DNA from: Eledone cirrhosa
Taxonomy: Eukaryota
Direction: 5' to 3'
Assembly: GCA_964016885.1 (NCBI GenBank)
Contig: OZ024761.1
Span: forward strand, 15,872,001-15,936,000
DNA length: 64,000 nt
The position numbers and the translations under genes are program-made. Of the stretch, positions 3,298 to 51,944 are shown piece after piece (the first letter of the stretch is position 1; every line of letters begins with the position of its first letter). The notes beneath the pieces were generated by a model. The model was given only the letters and a program-made list of their open reading frames with translations, did not search any database and had not been told where the DNA came from.

Positions 3298-4238
3298 ATA
3301 TTGTTATACTTGGGAAGGGTCATATTGTTGTAATAATATTGCCAGAAATAATAACAGAACACACTCACTGTTTGGTTGGTTTTCGCTTCTGTATCTTTCA
3401 TATCTCCATAGTTAATTTATTTTATATATCACTGATTGACCAACGGTTAGAAATACAGATATAAATATATTTATATTCCGACCTCACACACTTACACCTC
3501 TCCAAGACAATGTCACTGGACCGAGATCTTTGGCGGTACTCAGTAATAGAGTAGATCCGCCTTACCTAAATACAAAGTAAAACCTACTACAGTCAGTAGG
3601 CACCACTAACAAAATACCCCCCCCCCCCCCCACCGCCCCTTTCAATGTAAAGTTATGTTGGTGCCACAACATCCAGGCCGAAACAAATGAGATCGTGTAG
3701 GTGTCACAACACATGCTGTAATCTGGTCGTGTAGGCAACACGGTAAAAACCTCCCAGCCCCACACTGTAAATGTGGTTGGTGTTAGGAAGGGCATCCAGC
3801 TGTAGAAAACCCGCCAGACAGTCCTATGTGAGCAAGACAACCACTCTTGCCTCAAGTGGGAAAACTCCCGTCCAAACCCATGCAAGCGTGGAACATGGAT
3901 GTTAAACGATGATGATGATGATGATGATATATAGTCTATCAAAGTTTTTCGTTGCAAATCTGCAACATCATCAGTGGTACTATTATGTTCCTGCCTATTG
4001 TATTGTATGTCTATGCCATTTTTTAACAGATGGTCAATCAATGATAAACGTTGATTGCCAAATGAATTAACTATAACTATGGAGATATAAAAGATACAGA
4101 AGCAAAAACCAACCAAACAGTGAGTGTGTTCTGTTAGTATTTCTGGCAATATTATTACAACAATATGACCCTCCTCCCCAAGTGTAACAATATTTGTTTC
4201 GACACCCGATTTCATATCAAAAACCTTGCAAAACAAAT
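3298..4238. mobile_element. Inverted pair of PLE-related terminal fragments (3298-3415 minus; about 4065-4238 plus) around an RTE 3' end
   Basis: atgaccctcctcccaagtgtaacaatatttgtttcgacacccgatttcatatcaaaaaccttgc resembles the tail of the 43-45 kb PLE. Confidence 0.6.
3940..3978 (-). ncRNA. Hammerhead core fragment
   Basis: CTGATGA t gttgca-gatt-tgcaac GAAA; stem I partner not evident. Confidence 0.45.
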
Positions 4239-4298
4239 ATATATATATATTAATTAAAAGTTGTTAAGATGGAGTTACTTCACCATATTTGCTTTATT

Positions 4299-4349
4299 GC
4301 ATGACATATATTTCTGTGACATGGTTATGCATGTGACTTCATCAGATGC
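4299..4349 (-). ncRNA. Minimal type I hammerhead ribozyme
   Basis: gcat CTGATGA agtcacatg..catgtcaca GAAA tatatg TC atgc; stem II has a mismatch. Confidence 0.7.
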
Positions 4350-4572
4350 TCATACAAAATATATATATATATATATATATATGTGTCAAACAGATGTATT
4401 ACATTAAATTGTAATATTACGACCATAATACATGCACATTGCACATTTAGACATGCATTATAAAAAAAAATCATATCAGAGAAAAGAAGAACGAAAATAC
4501 TGTGAGCAACTCATCAAGGTGTGTGTGTATGTGCATATATATATATATGTATGTATGTATATATAGATAAGG

Positions 4573-24819: not shown

Positions 24820-27188
24820 ACCCCTAACCACTGAGACAAACACCCCATCCTAATTACTGAGACAAACACCCACCCCTAACCACTGAGACAAACACACACC
24901 CCTAACCATTGAGACAAACACCCAGCGTAACCATTGAGCCAAACACCCACCCCTAAACACTGAGACAAACACCCAGCTTAACCATTGAGCAAACACCCAC
25001 CCCTAAACACTGAGACAAACACCCAGCTTAACCATTGAGCCAAACACCCTCCCCTAAACACTGAGACAAACTTCCAGCTTAACCATTCAGCCAAACATCC
25101 ACCTCTAAACACTGAGACAAACACCCAGCTTAACCATTGAGCCAAACACCCTCCCCTAAACACTGAGACAAACACCCAGCTTAACCATTGAGCCAAACAC
25201 CCACCCCTAAACACTGAGACAAACACCAGCTTAACCATTGAGCCAAACACCCACCCCTAAACACTGAGACAAACTTCCAGCTTAACCATTGAGCCAAACA
25301 CCCACCCTTAAACACTAAGACAAACACCCAGCTTAACCATTGAGCCAAACACCCTCCCCTAAACACTGAGACAAACTTCCAGCTTAACCATTGAGCCAAA
25401 CACCCACCCCTAAACACTGAGACAAACACCCAGCTTAACCATTGAGCCAAACACCCACCCCTAAACACTGAGACAAACTTCCAGCTTAACCATTGAGCCA
25501 AACACCCACCCCTAAACACTGAGACAAACACCCAGCTTAACCATTGAGCCAAACACCCACCCCTAAACACTGAGACAAACACCCAGCTTAACCATTGAGC
25601 CAAACACCCACCCCTAAACACTGAGACAAACTTCCAGCTTAACCATTGAGCCAAACACCCACCCCTAACCATTGAGACAAACACCCAGCTTAACCATTGA
25701 GCCAAACACCCACCCCTAAACACTGAGACAAACACCCAGCTTAACCATTGAGCCAAACACCCACCCCTAAACACTGAGACAAACACCCAGCTTAACCATT
25801 GAGCCAAACACCCTCCCCTAAACACTGAGACAAACTTCCAGCTTAACCATTGAGCCAAACACCCACCCCTAAACACTGAGACAAACACCCAGCTTAACCA
25901 TTGAGCCAAACACCCACCACTAAACACTGAGACAAACTTCCAGCTTAACCATTGAGCCAAACACCCACCCCTAACCATTGAGACAAACACCCAGCTTAAC
26001 CATTGAGCCAAACACCCACCCCTAAACACTGAGACAAACACCCAGCTTAACCATTGAGCCAAACACCCACCCCTAAACACTGAGACAAACTTCCAGCTTA
26101 ACCATTGAGCCAAACACCCACCCCTAACCATTGAGACAAACACCCAGCTTAACCATTGAGCCAAACACCCACCCCTAAACACTGAGACAAACTTCCAGCT
26201 TAACCATTGAGCCAAACACCCACCCCTAAACACTGAGACAAACACCCAGCTTAACCATTGAGCCAAACACCCACCCCTAAACACTGAGACAAACACCCAG
26301 CTTAACCATTGAGCCAAACACCCACCCCTAAACACTGAGACAAACACCCAGCTTAACCATTGAGCCAAACACCCACCCCTAAACACTGAGACAAACTTCC
26401 AGCTTAACCATTGAGCCAAACACCCACCCCTAACCATTGAGACAAACACCCAGCTTAACCATTGAGCCAAACACCCACCCCTAAACACTGAGACAAACAC
26501 CCAGCTTAACCATTGAGCCAAACACCCACCCCTAAACACTGAGACAAACACCCAGCTTAACCATTGAGCCAAACACCCTCCCCTAAACACTGAGACAAAC
26601 TTCCAGCTTAACCATTGAGCCAAACACCCACCCCTAAACACTGAGACAAACACCCAGCTTAACCATTGAGCCAAACACCCACCACTAAACACTGAGACAA
26701 ACTTCCAGCTTAACCATTGAGCCAAACACCCACCCCTAACCATTGAGACAAACACCCAGCTTAACCATTGAGCCAAACACCCACCCCTAAACACTGAGAC
26801 AAACACCCAGCTTAACCATTGAGCCAAACACCCACCCCTAAACACTGAGACAAACTTCCAGCTTAACCATTGAGCCAAACACCCACCCCTAACCATTGAG
26901 ACAAACACCCAGCTTAACCATTGAGCCAAACACCCACCCCTAAACACTGAGACAAACTTCCAGCTTAACCATTGAGCCAAACACCCACCCCTAAACACTG
27001 AGACAAACACCCAGCTTAACCATTGAGCCAAACACCCACCCCTAAACACTGAGACAAACACCCAGCTTAACCATTGAGCCAAACACCCACCCCTAAACAC
27101 TGAGACAAACACCCAGCTTAACCATTGAGCCAAACACCCACCCCTAAACACTGAGACAAACACCCAGCTTAACCATTGACCAAACACC
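24820..27188. repeat. Minisatellite, 51-bp unit (25+26-bp dimer), about 45 copies, with a 765-bp higher-order period
   Basis: cccagcttaaccattgagccaaaca-cccacccctaaacactgagacaaaca. Confidence 0.95.
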
Positions 27189-27218
27189 TCTTTCACAAAT
27201 AGTACAACAGCTACAAAC

Positions 27219-27301
27219 CTCTTCAGAAGCAGCCTCCCGAGAGCCTGGACATTTTGTTACAACTTGCTCATGACACCGTTTATGTACAACGCAAGTGCAT
27301 A
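27219..27301 (-). CDS. PRKCE: PKC exon, C1A end ([28 protein letters not shown])
   Basis: 83 nt, ttgcag acceptor, gtttgt donor, phase 1 to 0; supplies remaining C1 zinc ligands; absent from ORF track. Confidence 0.93.
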
Positions 27302-29650: not shown

Positions 29651-29752
29651 CATCATCGATTAATGTCTGTCTTCCACAATGGCATGGGTTAGACGGGTTT
29701 GTTCCATTTAGAGGCAAGTTGAGTCGGGTGACCCTGTCTCTCTCATATAGCA

Positions 29753-29788
<36 letters not shown>

Positions 29789-29859
29789 AAAAAAAAAAAA
29801 AAAAAAAACGCCAAAACTACACCTGATGTACCCCTTCCATACACATGCACACATGTGTG

Positions 29860-31085
29860 TATCATGACTCGTGCACTGTTCATTTTACTGATGTTTGTGC
29901 ATTGCCCTATGTACTGTACATGCACTTTTTTGATGAGTTGTGGTGCACCTGGGCACTGTGCACAATATTTCGTTATTGTTATTATATCATGACTCATACA
30001 CTGTTTATTTTCCTGACATTTGTACATTATTCTATGTACTATACATGCACCTTTGATGAGTTGTAGTGCACCTGGGCACTGTGCACAATATTTCGTTATT
30101 GTTATTATATCATGACTCATACACTGTTTATTTTCCTGACATTTGTACATTATTCTATGTACTATACATGCACCTTTGATGAGTTGTAGTGCACCTGGGC
30201 ACTGTGCACAATATTTCGTTATTGTTATTATATCATGACTCATACACTGTTTATTTTCCTGACATTTGTACATTATTCTATGTACTATACATGCACCTTT
30301 GATGAGTTGTAGTGCACCTGGGCACTGTGCACAATATTTCGTTATTGTTATTATATCATGACTCATACACTGTTTATTTTCCTGACATTTGTACATTATT
30401 CTATGTACTATACATGCACCTTTGATGAGTTGTAGTGCACCTGGGCACTGTACACAATATTTCATTATTGTTATTATATCATGACTCATACACTGTTTAT
30501 TTTCCTGACATTTGTACATTATTCTATGTACTATACATGCACCTTTGATGAGTTGTAGTGCACCCGGGCACTGTGCACAATATTTCGTTATTGTTATTAT
30601 ATCATGACTCATACACTGTTTATTTTCCTGACATTTGTACATTATTCTATGTACTATACATGCACCTTTGATGAGTTGTAGTGCACCTGGGCACTGTGCA
30701 CAATATTTCGTTATTGTTATTATATCATGACTCATACACTGTTTATTTTCCTGACATTTGTACATTATTCTATGTACTATACATGCACCTTTGATGAGTT
30801 GTAGTGCACCTGAGCACTGTACACAATATTTCATTATTGTTATTATATCATGACTCATACACTGTTTATTTTCCTGACATTTGTACATTATTCTATGTAC
30901 TATACATGCACCTTTGATGAGTTGTAGTGCACCTGGGCACTGTACACAATATTTCATTATTGTTATTATATCATGACTCATACACTGTTTATTTTCCTGA
31001 CATTTGTACATTATTCTATGTACTATACATGCACCTTTGATGAGTTGTAGTGCACCTGAGCACTGTACACAATAATTTCATTATT
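29860..31085. repeat. Minisatellite, 123-bp unit, about 10 copies
   Basis: 41-aa periodicity in spurious ORF 29743-31011. Confidence 0.95.
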
Positions 31086-33545: not shown

Positions 33546-33935
33546 TATATATATATATATATATCATCATCATCATCATTTTACGTCCGCTTTTCCCTGC
33601 TTGCAAGGGTGGGACTGATTCTGGCTAGATTTCTACAGCTGGATGCCCTTCCTAACACCAACCTCATTTACAGTGAGTGCTGGGTGCTTTTTTTCCCGTG
33701 GAGCCTACACATCCACTTTACAGTGTGGGCTGGGGGGCTTTTTTTTTGCCGTGAAACCTCCACGACCACTTTGCAGTCCCTATCATCTCATTTCTACAGC
33801 TGAGTAAACTGGAGCAATGTGAAATAAAGTGTCTTTCTCAAGGAAACAACACATCTGAGAATTGAACTCACAACCTTTCGATTGTAAGGCCAATGCTCTA
33901 ACCACTAAGCCATGTGCCTCCATATATATATATTA

Positions 33936-40904: not shown

Positions 40905-41565
40905 TAGAAATAAGAGGGATCAGATGTTGTTTACTCGAGAGAAGGCTGCGTTGGTATGGACACGTGATGCGCATGAAAGTCGATAGCTGTATAACAAAGT
41001 GCAGGGCAATAAAGATAGACGGTAGCCACGGAATAGGCAGACCTAGAAAACCCTGGGACGAGCTGATAAACTCCGACCTCACACACTTACACCTCTCCAA
41101 GACAATGTCACTGGACCGAGACCTTTGGCGGTACTCAGTAATAGAGAAGACCCGCCTTACCTAAATACATAGTAAAACCTACTACAGTCAGTAGGCATCT
41201 CTAACAAAATACACCCCCGTCCCACCACCCCCACCTCATCCACACCGCCCCCTTCTATGTAAAGTTATGTTGGTGCCACACCATCCAGGCCGAAACAAAT
41301 GGGATCGTGTAGGTGTCACGACAAAAAAACACACAGTCCACGCTGTAATGTGGCCGTGTAGGCAACACGGTAAAAACCTCCCAGACCCACACTGTAAACG
41401 TGGTTGGTGTTAGGAAGGGCTTCCAACTGTAGAAAACCTGCCAGACAGTCCTATGCGAGCAAGACAACCACTCTTGCCTCAAGTGGGAAAACCCCCGTCC
41501 AAACCCATGCAAGCGTGGAACATGGACGTTAAACGTTGATGATGATGATGATGATGATGATGATG
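40905..41565 (+). mobile_element. RTE LINE 3' end with (GAT)n tail; further 5'-truncated copies at 1-180, 3475-3927, 9915-10517, 32970-33263, 45265-45578, 45597-45860, 46232-46573, 52633-53037, 55442-56035
   Basis: ERRLRWYGHVMRM..GRPRKPW; near-identical UTR among copies in both orientations. Confidence 0.85.
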
Positions 41566-43093: not shown

Positions 43094-43155
<62 letters not shown>

Positions 43156-43635
43156 ATACTTTGGGAGGGTCATGTTGCCAATAAGAAACACACGCACCAG
43201 TTGCTTTCACTTCAATTTAATTTATTAAATATTTATAAATTTACAAATTTATAAATTTCTGGTTGGTTGGCCGGTTCCACAACCAGATAGTTGTTTATAT
43301 ATATATAGTCACAGCTCCCCCGCCACACACTCTGCGACCCCCCCAGCGACCGGGGACCCCCCTCTTCGCCTCTGCGCCCCTCCTTCCCCCCATCCCACGC
43401 CACCCTGCTTGTGTGTGGGTTGCGCGCTCAGTTTGCGCATGCGCCACATCCGGGTGTCTGTGTGTGTTTGTGTTCATTTTTCTATTTTTCTATTTATATT
43501 TTTTTTATTTGTTTGTTTATTTATTTATTTATTGTTGGTTGGCCGCCTGCTCTATGTGTGTGCGTGCCCTCATTTTGTGTGTGTTTTCAATTGTAAGTTG
43601 TTTGCTCGATGTGTGTGTGTGCCCCCACCCTGTCC

Positions 43636-44162
43636 TTAACTGTAAGTTGCGATGCCGCTGCTCCACTCATATCCTCCACTCAATTTTGGTTTTAATTCCT
43701 TTATGCCCACTGCCTCTGTAATTTGCCCAAACACCGCGTCCCTCTTGTGTGTGGATTCCACTTTTACTCCCATGCTCTCTAATTTACCCCTGTGTTCTAT
43801 CCCAGCATGTCGGTAGAGCACAGATGACTCCCTATTATCCTGGAGGTCCCGCCAGTGTTCATCCACCCGCTCCCCTACACCACGAGCCGCCTCACCCATG
43901 TACACTACATTTTTGTTTCTACATTGTCCTTCAGTACATCTTATGCCATATACTACATTTCCAGTTTTACAGCCAACATGGGGGCTTATTTTACAGGTTA
44001 TACATCTCCTATCCATACATGAGGGTCCTCGGAACGGGTATGTCTTGCCAATAAGTGTCCCTACGGAGGTACCAGGTCTCTCTACTATCTTAATATTGGG
44101 GTTATGTTTCTTTAGGGCCCTTCTAAATTTGTAGGCTAGTTCGCCTCTAGGGGTTGTATTGA
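43636..44162 (-). pseudogene. Mirror copy of the PLE GIY-YIG fragment
   Basis: Translation identical to the plus-strand copy. Confidence 0.88.
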
Positions 44163-44689
44163 TCAATACAACCCCTAGAGGCGAACTAGCCTACAAATTT
44201 AGAAGGGCCCTAAAGAAACATAACCCCAATATTAAGATAGTAGAGAGACCTGGTACCTCCGTAGGGACACTTATTGGCAAGACATACCCGTTCCGAGGAC
44301 CCTCATGTATGGATAGGAGATGTATAACCTGTAAAATAAGCCCCCATGTTGGCTGTAAAACTGGAAATGTAGTATATGGCATAAGATGTACTGAAGGACA
44401 ATGTAGAAACAAAAATGTAGTGTACATGGGTGAGGCGGCTCGTGGTGTAGGGGAGCGGGTGGATGAACACTGGCGGGACCTCCAGGATAATAGGGAGTCA
44501 TCTGTGCTCTACCGACATGCTGGGATAGAACACAGGGGTAAATTAGAGAGCATGGGAGTAAAAGTGGAATCCACACACAAGAGGGACGCGGTGTTTGGGC
44601 AAATTACAGAGGCAGTGGGCATAAAGGAATTAAAACCAAAATTGAGTGGAGGATATGAGTGGAGCAGCGGCATCGCAACTTACAGTTAA
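44163..44689 (+). pseudogene. PLE linker plus GIY-YIG endonuclease fragment (apparently A-to-G hypermutated)
   Basis: CxxC...C, NVVYGIRC, VYMGE (YIGE), ERxxEH, YRHAxxEH, QITEAV, LxxxxEW motifs. Confidence 0.88.
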
Positions 44690-44973
44690 GGACAGGGTGG
44701 GGGCACACACACACATCGAGCAAACAACTTACAATTGAAAACACACACAAAATGAGGGCACGCACACACATAGAGCAGGCGGCCAACCAACAATAAATAA
44801 ATAAATAAACAAACAAATAAAAAAAATATAAATAGAAAAATAGAAAAATGAACACAAACACACACAGACACCCGGATGTGGCGCATGCGCAAACTGAGCG
44901 CGCAACCCACACACAAGCAGGGTGGCGTGGGATGGGGGGAAGGAGGGGCGCAGAGGCGAAGAGGGGGGTCCCC

Positions 44974-45018
44974 GGTCGCTGGGGGGGTCGCAGAGTGTGT
45001 GGCGGGGGAGCTGTGACT
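44974..45018 (+). ncRNA. Minimal type I hammerhead, apparently destroyed by A-to-G changes (mirror copy at 43307-43351)
   Basis: ggtcg CTGGGGG g gtcgca..tgtggc GGGG gagc TG tgact reverts by G-to-A only to agtca CTGAAGA a gtcaca..tgtgac GAAA gagc TA tgact. Confidence 0.65.
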
Positions 45019-45545
45019 ATATATATATAAACAACTATCTGGTTGTGGAACCGGCCAACCAACCAGAAATTTATAAATTTGTAAATTTATAAATATTTAA
45101 TAAATTAAATTGAAGTGAAAGCAACTGGTGCGTGTGTTTCTTATTGGCAACATGACCCTCCCAAAGTATAACAATATCGGTTTCAACACACGATTTCAGA
45201 TAAAGAATCTTGCTAAACAAATTCAGAAACGAAATATATATATATATATATTGTATATATATATCAATGTAAAGTTATGTTGGTGCCACAACATCCAGGC
45301 CGAAACAAATGAGGTCGTGTAGGTGTCACGACAAAAAAAAACACACAGTCCACGCTGTAATGTGGTCGTGTAGGTAACACGGTAAAAACCTCCCAGTCCC
45401 ACACTGTAAATGTGGTTGGTGTTAGGAAGGGCATCCAGCTGTAGAAAACCCGCCAGACAGTCCTATGCGAGCAAGACAACCACTCTTGCCCAAGTGGGAA
45501 AACTCCCGTCCAAACCCATGCAAGCGTGGAATATGGACGTTAAAC

Positions 45546-45580
<35 letters not shown>

Positions 45581-46570
45581 GATATATATATATATATCAT
45601 CATCATTATCCTCATCATCCTCGTTTAACGTCCACTTTCCACGTTAGCATGGGTTAGACGGGAGTTGTCCCACTTGAGGCAAGGTTGGTCGGGTAACCGT
45701 GTCTCGCTCATATAGGACTATCTGGCAGGTTTTCTATGGCTGGATGCCCTTCCTAACACCAACCACATTTACAGTGTGGAACTGGGAACTTTTTACCGTG
45801 TTACCTACACGACCACATTACAGCATGGACTGTGTGTTTTTTTTCTCGTGACACCTACATATATATATAATATGACTGAGTGGTTACTAGGAAATATAAT
45901 AAAAAAACCACCTAGGGAAAAATGGAACAGAAAACTCATTAGACACATACGCAAGGATGATTCTTGCTCATTGGCTGTCTTCTGAGGGTCATTATAGTTT
46001 TTGTCTATCATTAGCAGGGCAGTCTAAAATAAACCTGCCCTACTAATAATCTCACCTGAAATATCCTATAGCTAACTTTGTAAAAGTTATTCTATATATG
46101 TGTATAATTCTCTAAGTGGCATATTTAGTTATGATTTATTGAGATTTTCAGTACAGTGACAAATAATCTATTTAACATATATATATATACAAACCCATGC
46201 AAGCATGGAAGATGGACGTTAAACGATGATGAGTAATACAGAGTACCCGACCTCCCATGGGTACATGCTGAAGCATATAAACAATATGCCCCCACACCCC
46301 CCACCGCAAGGTGGTCGTGGAGGTGCCACGGCAAAAAAGCACCCAGCCCACACTGTAAAGTGGACGTGTAGGCGCCACGAAAAAGCACCCAGCACTCACT
46401 GTAAATGAGGTTGGTGTTAGGAAGGGCATCCAGCTGTAGAAATCAAGCCAGATCAGTTCCTGTATGAGCAAGGCATGGTCAGCCGACACTGCACACAACA
46501 GGACAACCCGTCTAACCCATGCTAGCGTGGAAGAACGGACGTAAAACGGTGATGATGATGATGATGATGA

Positions 46571-46622
<52 letters not shown>

Positions 46623-49294
46623 TTATTGCAGTAGAGTCCAGTAGAAGCTAGTTCTAACTAACTTATACATATATTTGCTGATCTATATAAGAGATTAAAT
46701 AAGATTTGATATAACCCAAACTATGTTCTTCGTTCTGCATGACTTACCATAATATATGTCAGTAAGTTTAAATGCTTTCCTTCTTTTCATTTCTCACGAA
46801 CTACAATATACACCAGCTTCACCCCAACTTGTTACCTTGCTCTGTTGATTAATCTTACCTCACCTGGCATAAAGGGCCATAACTAAACTCTAGTGATTAA
46901 ACCAACTCCTACCCTAGATGTTGTTGTTGTCGATGATAATGGTGATTATGTATGTATGTATGTAGGTAGGTAGGTAGGTAGGTATGTATGTAAATATGTA
47001 TGTATGAACACATTGTAAAGTGGTTGTGTAGGTGTCACGCCAAAAAGCACCCAGCCCTCACTGTAAAGTGGTCATGTAGGTGTCACGCCAAAAAGCACCC
47101 AGTAGACATTGTAAATGTGATTGCCGTTAGGAAGGGCATCCAGCTGTAGAAACCAACCCAGAGTCAGTTCTGTATGATCAAGACACGGTCACCTAATCTG
47201 ATTTGTCTCAAAATGGAACAACCCGTCTAACCCACATTAGCGTGGGAAAATAGATTTTAAACTCTAATGATGATGATGATATCGATACACAAGTTCTAAT
47301 GTTGTAACAACTTTTTTATATGAGAGAGAGAAAGAAGTATCGATCCTAGTACTGGAACCTAGTACTTTTTTCTTTATCAACCTCGAGATGATGAAAGGCA
47401 AAGTTGACCTCAGCAGGATTTGAATTCAGAGTACACATAGTCAGATCGAATACTGCAAAGCATACTATCCAACATTCCAATGACTGTGCCAATTTGCCAC
47501 CTGATGATGATGATATTGGATTCAAAGTCAGTAATTTCGGAAGGAAGAATATGTCGATAAAATTAACCCCAATACTTCATTGGTACTTTATTTTTCTTTT
47601 AACTTTAGCATTTAAACTGGCCATATTCGGCCAGGACTCTCTCACCTCTTTCTGTTCAAACTGGCTGTAACCATACTGACATTAAAGTATTGTTCTCAAA
47701 ATTAATAATATCAAAATCTCATAGATTCGATATTATGTGAGATAATTATGTGAGGTAAAGTGTTTACCGTGAAAATACAATAGTAAATATAGAGTAATGT
47801 AAATGCTAAAGGGTTAAAGGCAAAGTTGACCTCGATGGGATTTGAACACAAAACATAAATTACCAGAAGAGATACTGTTAACAGGCACACCACATATAAC
47901 AATCAAACAAATGACTCATTTCTATTGGAAGCCCTCTACAATGTGAGGTTTGTGAAGTTTGGTTGAGGTATGAGTAGTAAGTACCCTGATTTAGAGCAAA
48001 CTTAGTCTAGGACAAAAGCCAGCAAGCAAGAAAAGGTGTGGTGAAATAATTATAATGTATGCATACAACACAAAACACTTTAGTCTTTACGTTGGAGTAT
48101 CTCCAATGAAAACAATGAATTTGCAGGGATTTAGTAAACTAGGATTTTTTTCAACATGCTGACGCGTATGTGTGTTTTGTGCATATGCATACATTTATAT
48201 GTATGAGTATATAAATATAAACGTGCAAACACAGGCACACTTGCAAAAATACACACTCAGACATACATTCACACAAATGCACACATACACAGCATAACAA
48301 ATGGACTGCCAGCTGCTATTTTGCTATAGTTTTTTCACTCCACCCACATCCTTTTACACACACATATATTCATGCAGGCAGCAGATGTAAAGAGAGGGGA
48401 GTAGTATGAGGTAGTCAAACTACTCCTTTCTCTTTACATGTTGTGACAGAATCACAGAAATTTATATATAGATATAAACAAACGTTTTAATTAAGTTGAT
48501 TTTTGGAACATATATAAACACATTAACCTTTTTGAGAGACACTAAGAGATCAGGGAACAGATCCATTCAGATATCACAGTTCTGATACTAGAGAAATGTG
48601 GTTAGAATGTCTCAAGAAAAAATTGCTGGACAGATTTTTAGCTTGGAGATCAGAGAATCGCTCCAGGTAGAGCTGCTACTTCACCAAATTGAGAGCTCAC
48701 AGCTCTGATACTATAGACATGTGGTTAGAATGTCTCAGGAAAGAATTGTTGGACTCATTAAAATCATTTCTGGGTGTTAAGAGCTAAAGAGTTCCTGTAT
48801 AAATTAAAATATTCCAACATAATTTGATAAGAACCTTTTGACAAGTTATATTACAAATACCATCTTAACCCGTTAACATTTACATTAGTCTATATATACT
48901 ATTGTATTTTCATGGTAAACACTTTATCTCACATAATATTGAATCTATGAGATTTTGATATTTATTTTGAGAACAATACCTTAAAATCAGTATGAGCAGC
49001 CAGTTACAGCCAGTTTGAACCGAAAGAGGTGAGAGAATTCTGGCCAGATGCGGCCAGTTTAAATGCTAAAAGGTTAATGAAATAATTTTGGTAAATTCCT
49101 CAAAACTCCTAGTTAATTTATTCATTTATTAGAAATATATGAACAAAACTATTTCTATTCTGTGTCCCAGTCAAGGGGCTGAGGCCATGCTGGGGCACCG
49201 CAATGATGGCTGGAACAAGCACCACAAGGTATTAATGACCCTACAAATGTCACCCACCACCAGGTATTCTAACACCTTAAGAACTCTACCAATG

Positions 49295-50778
49295 TCACCA
49301 GGTGATGGTGGTGATAATCGTAGTAGTAGTATTGGTGGTAGTGGTATTGGAGGTGGTAGTATTGGTGGTAGTAGTAGTGGTGGTGGTGGAAATAGTGGTG
49401 GTAGTAGTGGTATTGGTGGAAGTAGTGGTGGTGGTGGTGGTGGCAGTAGTATTGGTCGCAGTAGTGGTGGTGGTAGTAGTAGTGGTATTGGTGGCAATAG
49501 TGGTAGTGGTGGTAGTAGTGGTGGTGGTAGCAGTAGTGGTATTGGTGGCAGTAGTGGTGGAAGTAGTGGTGGTGGAAGTAGTGGTAGTGGTGGTAGTAGT
49601 GGTATTGGTGGCAGTAGTGGTATTGGTGGAAGTAGTGGTGGTGGAAGTAGTGGTGGTGGTGGCAGTAGTGGTATTGGTGGCAGTAGTGGTGGTGGTGGTG
49701 GAAGTAGTGGTATTGGTGGCAGTAGTGGTGGTGGTGGTGGAAGTAGTGGTGGTGGTGGCAGTAGTGGTATTGGTGGCAGTAGTGGTGGTGGTGGAAGTAG
49801 TGGTGGTGGTGGTGGAAGTAGTGGTGGTGGTGGCAGTAGTGGTGGTGGTGGAAGTAGTGGTGGTGGTGGTGGAAGTAGTGGTGGTGGTGGCAGTAGTGGT
49901 ATTGGTGGCAGTAGTGGTGGTGGTGGAAGTAGTGGTGGTGGTGGAAGTAGTGGTGGTGGTAGTAGTGGTATTGGTGGCAGTAGTGGTATTGGTGGCAGTA
50001 GTGGTGGTGGTGGAAGTAGTGGTGGTGGTGGTGGAAGTAGTGGTGGTGGTGGCAGTAGTGGTATTGGTGGCAGTAGTGGTGGTGGTGGAAGTAGTGGTGG
50101 TGGTGGAAGTAGTGGTGGTGGTAGTAGTGGTATTGGTGGCAGTAGTGGTATTGGTGGCAGTAGTGGTGGTGGAAGTAGTGGTGGTGGTGGCAGTAGTGGT
50201 ATTGGTGGCAGTAGTGGTGGTGGTGGTGGAAGTAGTGGTGGTGGTGGCAGTAGTGGTGGTGGAAGTAGTGGTGGTGGTGGCAGTAGTGGTGGTGGTGGTG
50301 GAAGTAGTGGTATTGGTGGCAGTAGTGGTGGTGGTGGTGGAAGTAGTGGTGGTGGTGGAAGTAGTGGTGGTGGTGGCAGTAGTGGTATTGGTGGCAGTAG
50401 TGGTATTGGTGGCAGTAGTGGTGGTGGTGGTGGAAGTAGTGGTGGTGGTGGAAGTAGTGGTGGTGGTGGCAGTAGTGGTATTGGTGGAAGTAGTGGTGGT
50501 GGTGGTGGAAGTAGTGGTGGTGGTGGCAGTAGTGGTATTGGTGGCAGTAGTGGTGGTGGTGGAAGTAGTGGTGGTGGTGGTGGAAGTAGTGGTGGTGGTG
50601 GCAGTAGTGGTATTGGTGGCAGTAGTGGTGGTGGTGGAAGTAGTGGTGGTGGTGGAAGTAGTGGTGGTGGAAGTAGTGGTGGTGGTGGCAGTAGTGGTAT
50701 TGGTGGCAGTAGTGGTGGTGGTGGAAGTAGTGGTGGTGGTGGCAGTAGTGGTATTGGTGGCAGTAGTGGTGGTGGTGC
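49295..50778. repeat. Compound (GGT/AGT)n trinucleotide array; similar arrays at 31680-32600 and 60800-62110
   Basis: Direct inspection. Confidence 0.9.
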
Positions 50779-51307
50779 CAGCAACTGTAGAGATAACTAA
50801 GTCAGTCACAGTGTGTTCTTTAAATACCAACAGTTGGTTAAGTTGTTCTTGGAACAGATAAGTTAGATTGTGTGTCATGGAAGAGAGAGAGAGAGAGGGA
50901 GAGAGAGAGGGGGGAAGCAGTGGGAAAGAGGGGTGGAGAGAGAGTGGGGAAGAGAGAGGGAGTGGGAATGGGAGAGAGAATGGGAAGAAGTGGGAGAGGG
51001 TGTGAGGAAAAGAGGAAGAGAGGAAGAGGGAGAGGGAAGGAAAGAGTGGGAAAGTGAGTGAGAGACAGAGAGAAGAAGAGGAAAAGGAGAGAGAAATGGA
51101 TGAGAGTGAAGAGGAAGAAAGAGTGCGAGGAAGGGAGAGGGAGAGGAAAAGGAGAGAGAAAAATAGATGAGAGTGAGGAAGAAGAGAGGGGTGAGGAAGA
51201 GGAAAAGAGACAGCTTCACAGTTATAGTTAGAGTGGGAGGTGGAGAGAGACAGGAGATAGAGAAAGAGGGGGGGGGAGTGGCAGAGTAAGAGAAACAGAT
51301 TGACAGT

Positions 51308-51360
<53 letters not shown>

Positions 51361-51944
51361 CAGAGAGGGTGAAAATAGGAACACACATATACACCCAGTT
51401 GCTAAAGTGATATACACACATACATACATGCATGCACATACACAATAGCTTACTGGATGGATGCCATCACCACACATACATATGCACACACACACATACA
51501 CACACTCACACACAATAATACATCTGTGTTGAGCTGTGCAGTAACTGGGTCGATATAGTGGCATACACACACACACACACACATATACATAGATATATAT
51601 ATATACATATGTACACACACACAAAAGTGCACAAATACACATTCAGATAGAAACACACATGTACATACACACATATATAGATCCATGCAAAAATGCACAA
51701 ATACGCACACAAACACACACACACACACAGATATATACACATACAAAAGTGCACAAATGCACATATAGAAACACACAGACACATATACATACACACACCA
51801 AAATGCACAAATGCACACACAGAAACACACACACACAAAAATGTACAAATGCACACACAGAAACACACACACACACATATATATATAGTTTTAATATATA
51901 TGAGATTCTACAGGACTAGAACTGTTTCATTCTTTAGAAATCAT

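Follow-up and report, generated by a model that had tools for sequence, protein, structure and literature searches.

An inverted Penelope-like insertion of Eledone cirrhosa with a rewritten hammerhead core, probably copied from ADAR-edited RNA

Introduction

Can a genome keep a record of the editing of an RNA, and does such editing serve to silence a ribozyme that the RNA carries? The question is raised by 45 bases at 44974–45018 of a 64-kb stretch of Eledone cirrhosa DNA (the window, taken at its full length), in which the original prediction, made from the letters alone, had seen a hammerhead ribozyme of the surrounding element erased by A-to-G conversion; these bases are present exactly as quoted there. 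Minimal hammerheads have been described in the pseudo-LTRs (pLTRs) of metazoan Penelope-like elements (PLEs) by Cervera and De la Peña (2014, PMC4209133), and the layout of PLE insertions comprises pLTRs from partial tandems, an inverted 5'-truncated copy and a tail of 30–40 bases at one end (PMC8557442). The preference of ADAR for the 5' neighbour follows the order A = U > C > G (PMC2790459), and in invertebrate hyper-editing a 3' A, not a 3' G, is enriched (PMC5625713). Articles are cited here by PMC number, in each case for the part of the article consulted.

Results and Discussion

The insertion and its family

The features of the locus are listed in Table 1. The arms of the palindrome meet at 44162/44163 without spacer, and the succession of ORF end, hammerhead and start of the same ORF along the arm is the pLTR layout of Penelope-like elements. 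The 3'UTR location originally assigned to the hammerhead is right in that the site lies 3' of the stop codon (44689); more exactly, it stands in the pLTR, 133 bases 5' of the next ATG (45152).

Table 1. Coordinates of the insertion and of the read-through copies discussed in the text
Feature	Position	Strand	Remarks
Inverted arm, 1,015 bp	43148–44162	-	0 mismatches vs 44163–45177; same edits
Mirror of the edited hammerhead, letter for letter	43307–43351	-	
Tail-bearing arm, 5'-truncated PLE 3' end	44163–45237	+	Endonuclease region, pLTR, first 86 bases of next ORF
PLE ORF, C-terminal 174 codons	44165–44689	+	CX4CxxC linker and GIY-YIG endonuclease
Densest editing tract	44900–45013	+	32/53 adenosines edited in 44900–45018
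Minimal type-I hammerhead of the PLE pLTR	44974–45018	+	12/16 adenosines read as G
Edit-free zone around the next ATG (45152)	45126–45177	+	Ends at first family-wide insertion end (45177)
ORF start of the next unit, first 28 codons	from 45152	+	
60-base PLE tail, one arm only	45178–45237	+	Identical to sibling; ends in (TA)n target
Read-through copy L083	G000:C15:40.036 Mb		13 A>G and 10 T>C; 0/54 edits in unpaired parts
Read-through copy L084	G000:C1574		14 A>G and 10 T>C; 0/24 edits in unpaired parts
Read-through copy L186	G000:C3:17.11 Mb		16 and 6; weaker case

A family panel was drawn from at least 43 matches in the 3.0-Gb genome (40 of 1,625 candidates were scored); 30 were taken, 28 of which are non-self. 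Compared with each of these 28 siblings, the window copy shows 106–109 A>G changes, 1–3 T>C and few others, the siblings being otherwise 99.7–99.9% alike to it. One of them, L037, contains an ORF of 1,279 amino acids within a tandem unit of about 4.3 kb, and the window arm matches residues 1101–1279 and 1–28 of its protein. The GIY-YIG domain of L037 matches PF01541 with E = 6e-5, above the cut-off; the excised domain matches RVT_1 with E = 2.9e-5, below the curated cut-off, and the whole protein gives no RVT_1 match. The family displays the single ORF with reverse transcriptase and C-terminal GIY-YIG that characterizes endonuclease-bearing PLEs, as well as the tandems and inverted pairs of the pLTR layout, its tail having 60 bases and not 30–40. 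A CX4CxxC motif is seen in the ORF translation, the marks of Neptune/Nematis-type PLEs being a CX2-5CxxC linker between reverse transcriptase and endonuclease and their place in the phylogeny of reverse transcriptases. The ORF end of the window copy is still open yet recoded, with 78% identity to the sibling protein, and its edited version does not match PF01541, whereas the sibling does. Inverted head-to-head pairs are frequent among the insertions of the family, and comparison of four sequencing runs with an unedited sibling reveals variants of the subfamilies and both insertion ends but is silent on RNA editing.

A third subfamily (L114–L143) has 314 matches to an upstream anchor, mostly short among the 30 taken, and a UU cleavage site; it is possibly non-autonomous. 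Four further loci (L060, L077, L087 and L092) align only briefly to the family and share a recurring hammerhead variant in which position 7 is G and helix III reads G-AG-C; they either belong to a related family or descend from an ancestor that had been edited.

The hammerhead and its lost core

The motif is indeed the element's own minimal hammerhead, since it is found in the unedited siblings: CUGAAGA, GAAA and a UA site, a core whose absence from homologous copies would have spoken against the prediction, are present in all 28 non-self copies aligned, and in the alignment stem II is unchanged in 27 of them, L028 having one loop change. The siblings possess CUGANGA and GAAA, a NUH site (the cleavage base of unedited variants is A, U or C), helices I–III, G10.1–C11.1 and the base between 9 and 10.1, and the unedited motif folds into helices I and II. 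Among eight natural variants, window included, 94% of cells are paired and five pairs are changed on both sides, a covariation score reached by 0 of 500 shuffles, with slid controls at most 43% paired and few independent lineages contributing. The 45-base motifs have weak MFE z-scores, -1.1 for the unedited and -0.5 for the edited form. Across the 64 kb, a G-tolerant hammerhead descriptor matches here and at the mirror copy and nowhere else, and neither 5,000 shuffles of the arm nor 5,000 shuffles of its G-rich part gave a match. Rfam hammerhead models found nothing at E ≤ 10 in sibling, window copy or 4260–4380, a result that is not discriminating because the unedited motif likewise goes unmatched.

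The proposed rewriting of the core by A-to-G conversion is borne out by the sites at which sibling adenosines are replaced by G. Six of them belong to stems and loops or to N7 (44974, 44978, 44983, which is N7, 44990, 45002 and 45010), five to the core (44982, A6; 44985, A9; 45005, A13; 45006, A14; 45007, A15.1), and the last, at 45013, is cleavage base 17. The numbering of hammerheads and the invariance of their core adenosines are established knowledge; in the window copy A6, A9, A13, A14, A15.1 and the cleavage base are all six G, and the sequence is not expected to be a functional hammerhead. Core conservation, together with the NHH rule, which excludes G at the cleavage site (PMC3923133), predicts that it is unable to self-cleave. 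The edited bases would be inosines in the RNA, and inosine need not act exactly like G. Stems I and II, on the other hand, were not broken, contrary to what the restoration of both stems by G-to-A reversion had implied: the MFE fold of the edited copy retains them because A-U becomes G-U, and the loss concerns the catalytic core and the cleavage base.

The segment 15.2–16.2 with loop 3 is not palindromic in the siblings, where it reads G-AA-C or G-GA-C, contrary to what is expected for a dimer; helix III of a sibling dimer would contain two central mismatches. Both loop 3 alleles are common across the family, and a dimer of the second would have tandem G-A, not A-A.

The motif at 4299–4349 (minus), which had been presented as a hammerhead with the same start in unedited form, has the start claimed for it and an intact core but is not the hammerhead of this family: it is without BLAST match to the full sibling, has a mismatch in stem II and lacks a hammerhead fold at MFE. 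It was therefore rejected as unedited control, the true siblings being the proper one. A second hammerhead-like motif with intact core lies at 3937–3979 (minus); both adjoin an 81%-identical remnant of the ORF start and tail of a related PLE (4161–4238, plus), and the 3937 motif covaries with helix II of the present family.

The A-to-G burst and other edited loci

In the window arm, 107 of 470 adenosines read as G between 44245 and 45054 relative to the siblings, against two T>C, one at 44224 and common to 11 of the 28 siblings, the other at 44226 and private to the window. All 107 edits are identical in both arms of the perfect 1,015-bp palindrome. The burst is patchy, with 0/35 adenosines edited in 44163–44244, 0/66 in 44783–44899 and 0/49 after 45054, and its densest tract takes in 74 purine-rich bases upstream as well as the hammerhead. 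Codon positions 1, 2 and 3 of the window ORF are edited at 22/84, 15/70 and 19/77 of their adenosines, without bias, and the editing signal is, as originally suggested, independent of protein motifs.

Editing in the window is more frequent after A or T (81/240) than after C or G (26/146; p = 7e-4) and before G (29/61; p = 3e-4); the depletion after G by itself is not significant in the window alone (p = 0.16). Pooling of 28 edited loci gives rates of 0.29, 0.29, 0.17 and 0.15 after A, T, C and G, respectively, and of 0.35 before G, with odds ratios relative to 5' A of 0.31 for 5' G and 0.48 for 5' C in a logistic fit. Clustered, one-stranded A>G changes with the 5' order A = U > C > G are the signs of ADAR hyper-editing, and both are found here; the rate-normalised preference for 3' G differs from invertebrate hyper-editing (PMC5625713) and counts against the match.

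The edited loci were collected by fixing one hammerhead A as G, which yielded 51 matches, many of them multiply changed, and by a downstream anchor, which yielded 42; both sets of matches were examined in full. From 204 partly overlapping loci, 28 independent ones with at least five A>G at family-stable sites were retained, 26 by the filter and two older ones (L066 and L071) by hand. A rough capture–recapture estimate (22 x 13 / 8) gives about 36 edited loci, or about 0.5% of copies, as a lower bound. When any single change is counted, A>G has no excess over T>C per site (203/11 vs 121/6), and the A>G signal is confined to clustered copies. ORF-anchored searches for long edited copies returned the window only, with one edited locus elsewhere among six matches; the upstream anchor recovered mostly the third subfamily and added one edited locus. 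Among 15 T>C-anchored matches, every one of which was inspected, two loci are read-through edited copies and the remainder carry ordinary substitutions. The edit pattern of the window occurs at no other locus, the corresponding matches (2 of 51 and 2 of 2) being its own two arms; in the assembly the copy has therefore no detectable progeny.

Editing at the hammerhead and in its surroundings

The original prediction went on to suggest that editing can switch off self-cleavage. Such a switch or filter, in which core inosines would stop cleavage and the uncleaved RNAs would be preferentially reverse transcribed, or in which ADAR would unwind trapped duplexes for insertion, appears unlikely, with no enrichment at the hammerhead among edited loci and about 98% of copies intact. 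In its favour, the hammerhead is the most edited feature of the window, with 12/16 adenosines changed against 95/454 in the element as a whole (p = 9e-6), and a core adenosine is edited in 21 of the 28 edited loci. Compared with the adjacent 74 bases, where 20/37 are edited, the difference fades (p = 0.22). For a test of enrichment we used the 14 edited loci that were recovered without the hammerhead as anchor (13 by the downstream and one by the upstream anchor). Here 60/192 hammerhead adenosines are edited against 150/554 in the flanks (p = 0.27; paired Wilcoxon p = 0.46), and core and non-core rates are equal (22/69 and 38/123, p = 1.0, polymorphic base 17 being unscored). The core is edited in 11 of these 14 loci, and about 11 are expected by chance from the flank rate of 27% and five scored core adenosines. 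The context-adjusted logistic odds ratio of 1.25 (95% range 0.80–1.96) lies above 1, and the 14 loci are compatible with a modest enrichment, up to an odds ratio of about 2.

Genome-wide, the 34-base hammerhead motif has 8,638 unedited matches and 8,841 if A may be G, so that about 98% of motifs were inserted intact and insertion therefore needs no dead hammerhead. In vitro, unprocessed RNA is the main template for insertion and hammerhead mutants insert as normal (PMC11167929). Because of the missing enrichment, the intact motifs and this in vitro behaviour, the loss of the hammerhead is likely collateral damage and not a regulated switch; RNA paired enough for ADAR could presumably not fold the hammerhead anyway. 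These findings leave room for the proposal that PLE templates are cleaved and then circularised (PMC4209133), because editing could come after circularisation.

Strand and probable source of the edited RNA

Each edited pair has its own pattern, common to both arms. Counted as edits shared, only in one arm and only in the other, the pairs give 30/1/0, 24/0/1, 20/0/0, 31/0/0, 14/0/1, 93/11/5, 10/1/0, 9/0/1 and 13/1/0. In the three read-through loci (Table 1) one arm shows A>G and its counterpart T>C, so that on a single strand every change is A>G; for L083 and L084 this strand ends in the sense tail, and the edits are confined to the double-stranded parts. The best reading of these three copies is that RNA hairpins transcribed from inverted parents were retrocopied, and arms edited differently yet on one strand suggest that the double-stranded substrate was supplied by hairpin transcripts of inverted insertions belonging to the family. 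A search with the L083 junction for an unedited parent returned one match, L083 itself. At the fold-back site of the window 12 loci were found, none with the same junction and no parent among them, and with 12 loci among thousands of copies the site does not stand out as a clear fold-back hotspot.

ADARs can act on RNA:DNA hybrids, and this activity would allow the changes to have been made on DNA, in a cDNA hairpin or an RNA:DNA hybrid, an error-prone pass of the reverse transcriptase being a further variant. We hold such an origin to be very improbable: if adenosines of first-strand cDNA were deaminated, the sense strand would show T>C and not A>G, the edited strand of L083 and L084 is the RNA strand with its sense tail, the edits end where pairing ends, to which polymerase errors would not be limited, and the neighbour preference fits ADAR.

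The unedited 3' end

Across the loci, the edit rate of 22–27% around the hammerhead falls to 8% at the equivalent of 45076–45125. In the equivalent of 45126–45177, 6 of 353 adenosines are edited in the 28 loci, where the rates of the individual loci predict 83.8, and in the tail (equivalent of 45178–45237) 2 of 497. The tail is without partner in inverted parents and 45126–45177 has one; there the opposite strand is edited in the read-through copies, at 1, 5 and 2 of 17 T each (8/51), two of these sites being also variable in two panel arms. With this segment paired and its opposite strand edited, the template strand would have been either protected by protein or selected for an intact signal, and reduced editing near duplex ends may contribute. 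Judged from the sequence comparison, the last ~110 bases, which include the start codon and the two insertion ends, likely form the footprint of a start signal for reverse transcription. This zone agrees with the ORF-start region that is needed for binding and initiation according to PMC11167929.

Assembly of the inverted insertion

The same edits in both arms imply that one RNA molecule or its cDNA was the source and that inversion came after editing. In nearly all inverted pairs of the family, one arm stops at the first and the other at the second of two fixed ends that lie 60 bases apart (equivalents of 45177 and 45237). In L032 the tail arm is shorter than the other arm at its 5' end, so that neither contains the other, and 24 edits are shared, which requires reverse transcription to have begun twice on one RNA; L071 and L089 point the same way less strongly. 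A single tail-primed cDNA that merely snapped back would account for the window but not for L032. The overlap may have been copied twice from the RNA, or once with subsequent snap-back, and the private change at 44226, present in both arms, is compatible with either. A 353-base contig from the sequencing runs is identical to 44398–44750 with 49 edited sites at a depth of 13, although the run may be the assembly's own source; no run contig covers the edited hammerhead at 97% likeness. That the palindrome is an assembly or sequencing artefact (a fold-back chimera or a base-calling bias), as arms with no mismatch and no spacer and run contigs that reach neither the hammerhead nor the junction might suggest, or a diverged G-rich subfamily, is the least probable reading of all, since that contig agrees with every edited base it spans and has the depth of a single copy, the arms stop at the two usual ends of the family, the arms of other edited pairs have diverged with age (L033), and an edit pattern unique to this locus excludes a G-rich subfamily.

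We are thus fairly confident that the window holds a 5'-truncated inverted PLE insertion whose template RNA was edited by ADAR while double-stranded, the hammerhead core having been lost, likely, as collateral. The course of events may have been as follows. Transcription across inverted pairs would give a long hairpin RNA, or sense RNA would pair with the antisense RNA of such pairs, and ADAR would convert about one quarter of the paired adenosines to inosine, as spectrum, strand and neighbours suggest. Editing would be densest around the hammerhead because that part sits in nearly every inverted arm. Edited RNA with its last ~110 bases unedited or protein-shielded would then be recognised and converted to cDNA at a (TA)n target, the reverse transcriptase starting at the two fixed ends and presumably reading inosine as G. 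The wider proposal that fixed ADAR edits amount to an in vivo mutational scan of the element, with a dispensable hammerhead core, ~110 bases kept unedited or shielded, two starts on one RNA and hairpin transcripts that both feed ADAR and re-insert, has in our judgement an even chance of being correct.

Comparison with known systems

Like the pLTR hammerheads of PMC4209133, those of the present family are of type I, with a helix I of 5 bp, a helix II of 6 bp, G10.1–C11.1, an extra base between 9 and 10.1 and a helix III of 2 bp, in thousands of dispersed and inverted copies; unlike them, 15.2–16.2 with loop 3 is not palindromic here, and the core of the window copy is rewritten by clustered A>G. 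Similarities with the Poseidon PLE of Anolis (Frangieh et al. 2024, PMC11167929) include two fixed ends inside the ORF start that bound the tail, AT-rich targets, an uncleaved RNA template and insertion without need of the hammerhead. The tail of 60 bases and the presence of the CX4CxxC linker differ from Poseidon, as does the distance of the hammerhead from the ATG, which it overlaps there. Beyond what is described for Poseidon, the edits here serve as barcodes in vivo and outline the start region as a footprint.

A>G hypermutation of the ADAR type is known from the retroviruses RAV-1 and ALV (Felder 1994; Hajjar and Linial 1995, both cited in PMC2790459), in which clustered A>G likewise enters DNA via reverse transcription of edited RNA; those are exogenous viruses, whereas here an endogenous, non-viral retrotransposon is concerned at dozens of loci. 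Burst-edited retroelements fixed in genomes are also known as APOBEC-edited copies of LTR retrotransposons, for which Knisbacher and Levanon (2016, PMC4866542) screened for G>A with invertebrates as negative control; that editing is G>A on the cDNA of vertebrate LTR elements, whereas in the present PLE it is A>G on the strand of the RNA. Penelope transcripts are hyper-edited in lizard RNA-seq and are a major ADAR substrate (Porath et al. 2017, PMC5625713), the edits being RNA–DNA mismatches there and integrated in the genome here. A literature search by titles and abstract openings, subscription journals aside, yielded no report of genomic edited PLE copies or of ADAR acting on a natural PLE hammerhead. 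New here, too, is the observation that the last ~110 bases are almost never edited.

RNA editing has thus likely been written into inherited DNA repeatedly by an endogenous retrotransposon, at 28 loci and in about 0.5% of copies. The role of the PLE hammerhead becomes testable from genome sequence, an intact form not being needed in the 3' pLTR of the template, as was also found in vitro (PMC11167929), and so does the assembly of insertions composed of an inverted repeat and a tail. The edit-free 3' zone nominates a candidate RNA element needed by the reverse transcriptase.

Other features of the window

Long open frames in strand-skewed repetitive sequence lie at 25181–27256 (minus), 29743–31077 (minus) and 49133–51466; the first has no Pfam match, and those of the second are all of repeat type, with no stretch that passes. 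At 33847–33918 (minus) an Rfam tRNA match of 35.8 bits (gathering score 29) may represent the tRNA-derived head of a SINE, the Rfam scan of the window being otherwise made up of sub-threshold matches, mostly to simple repeats. A SINE-like repeat of about 300 bases ending in (GAT)n occurs at 41210–41560, 45270–45580, 45580–45860 (minus), 46290–46570 and 3640–3925, and two of its copies directly flank the right end of the palindrome in opposite orientations.
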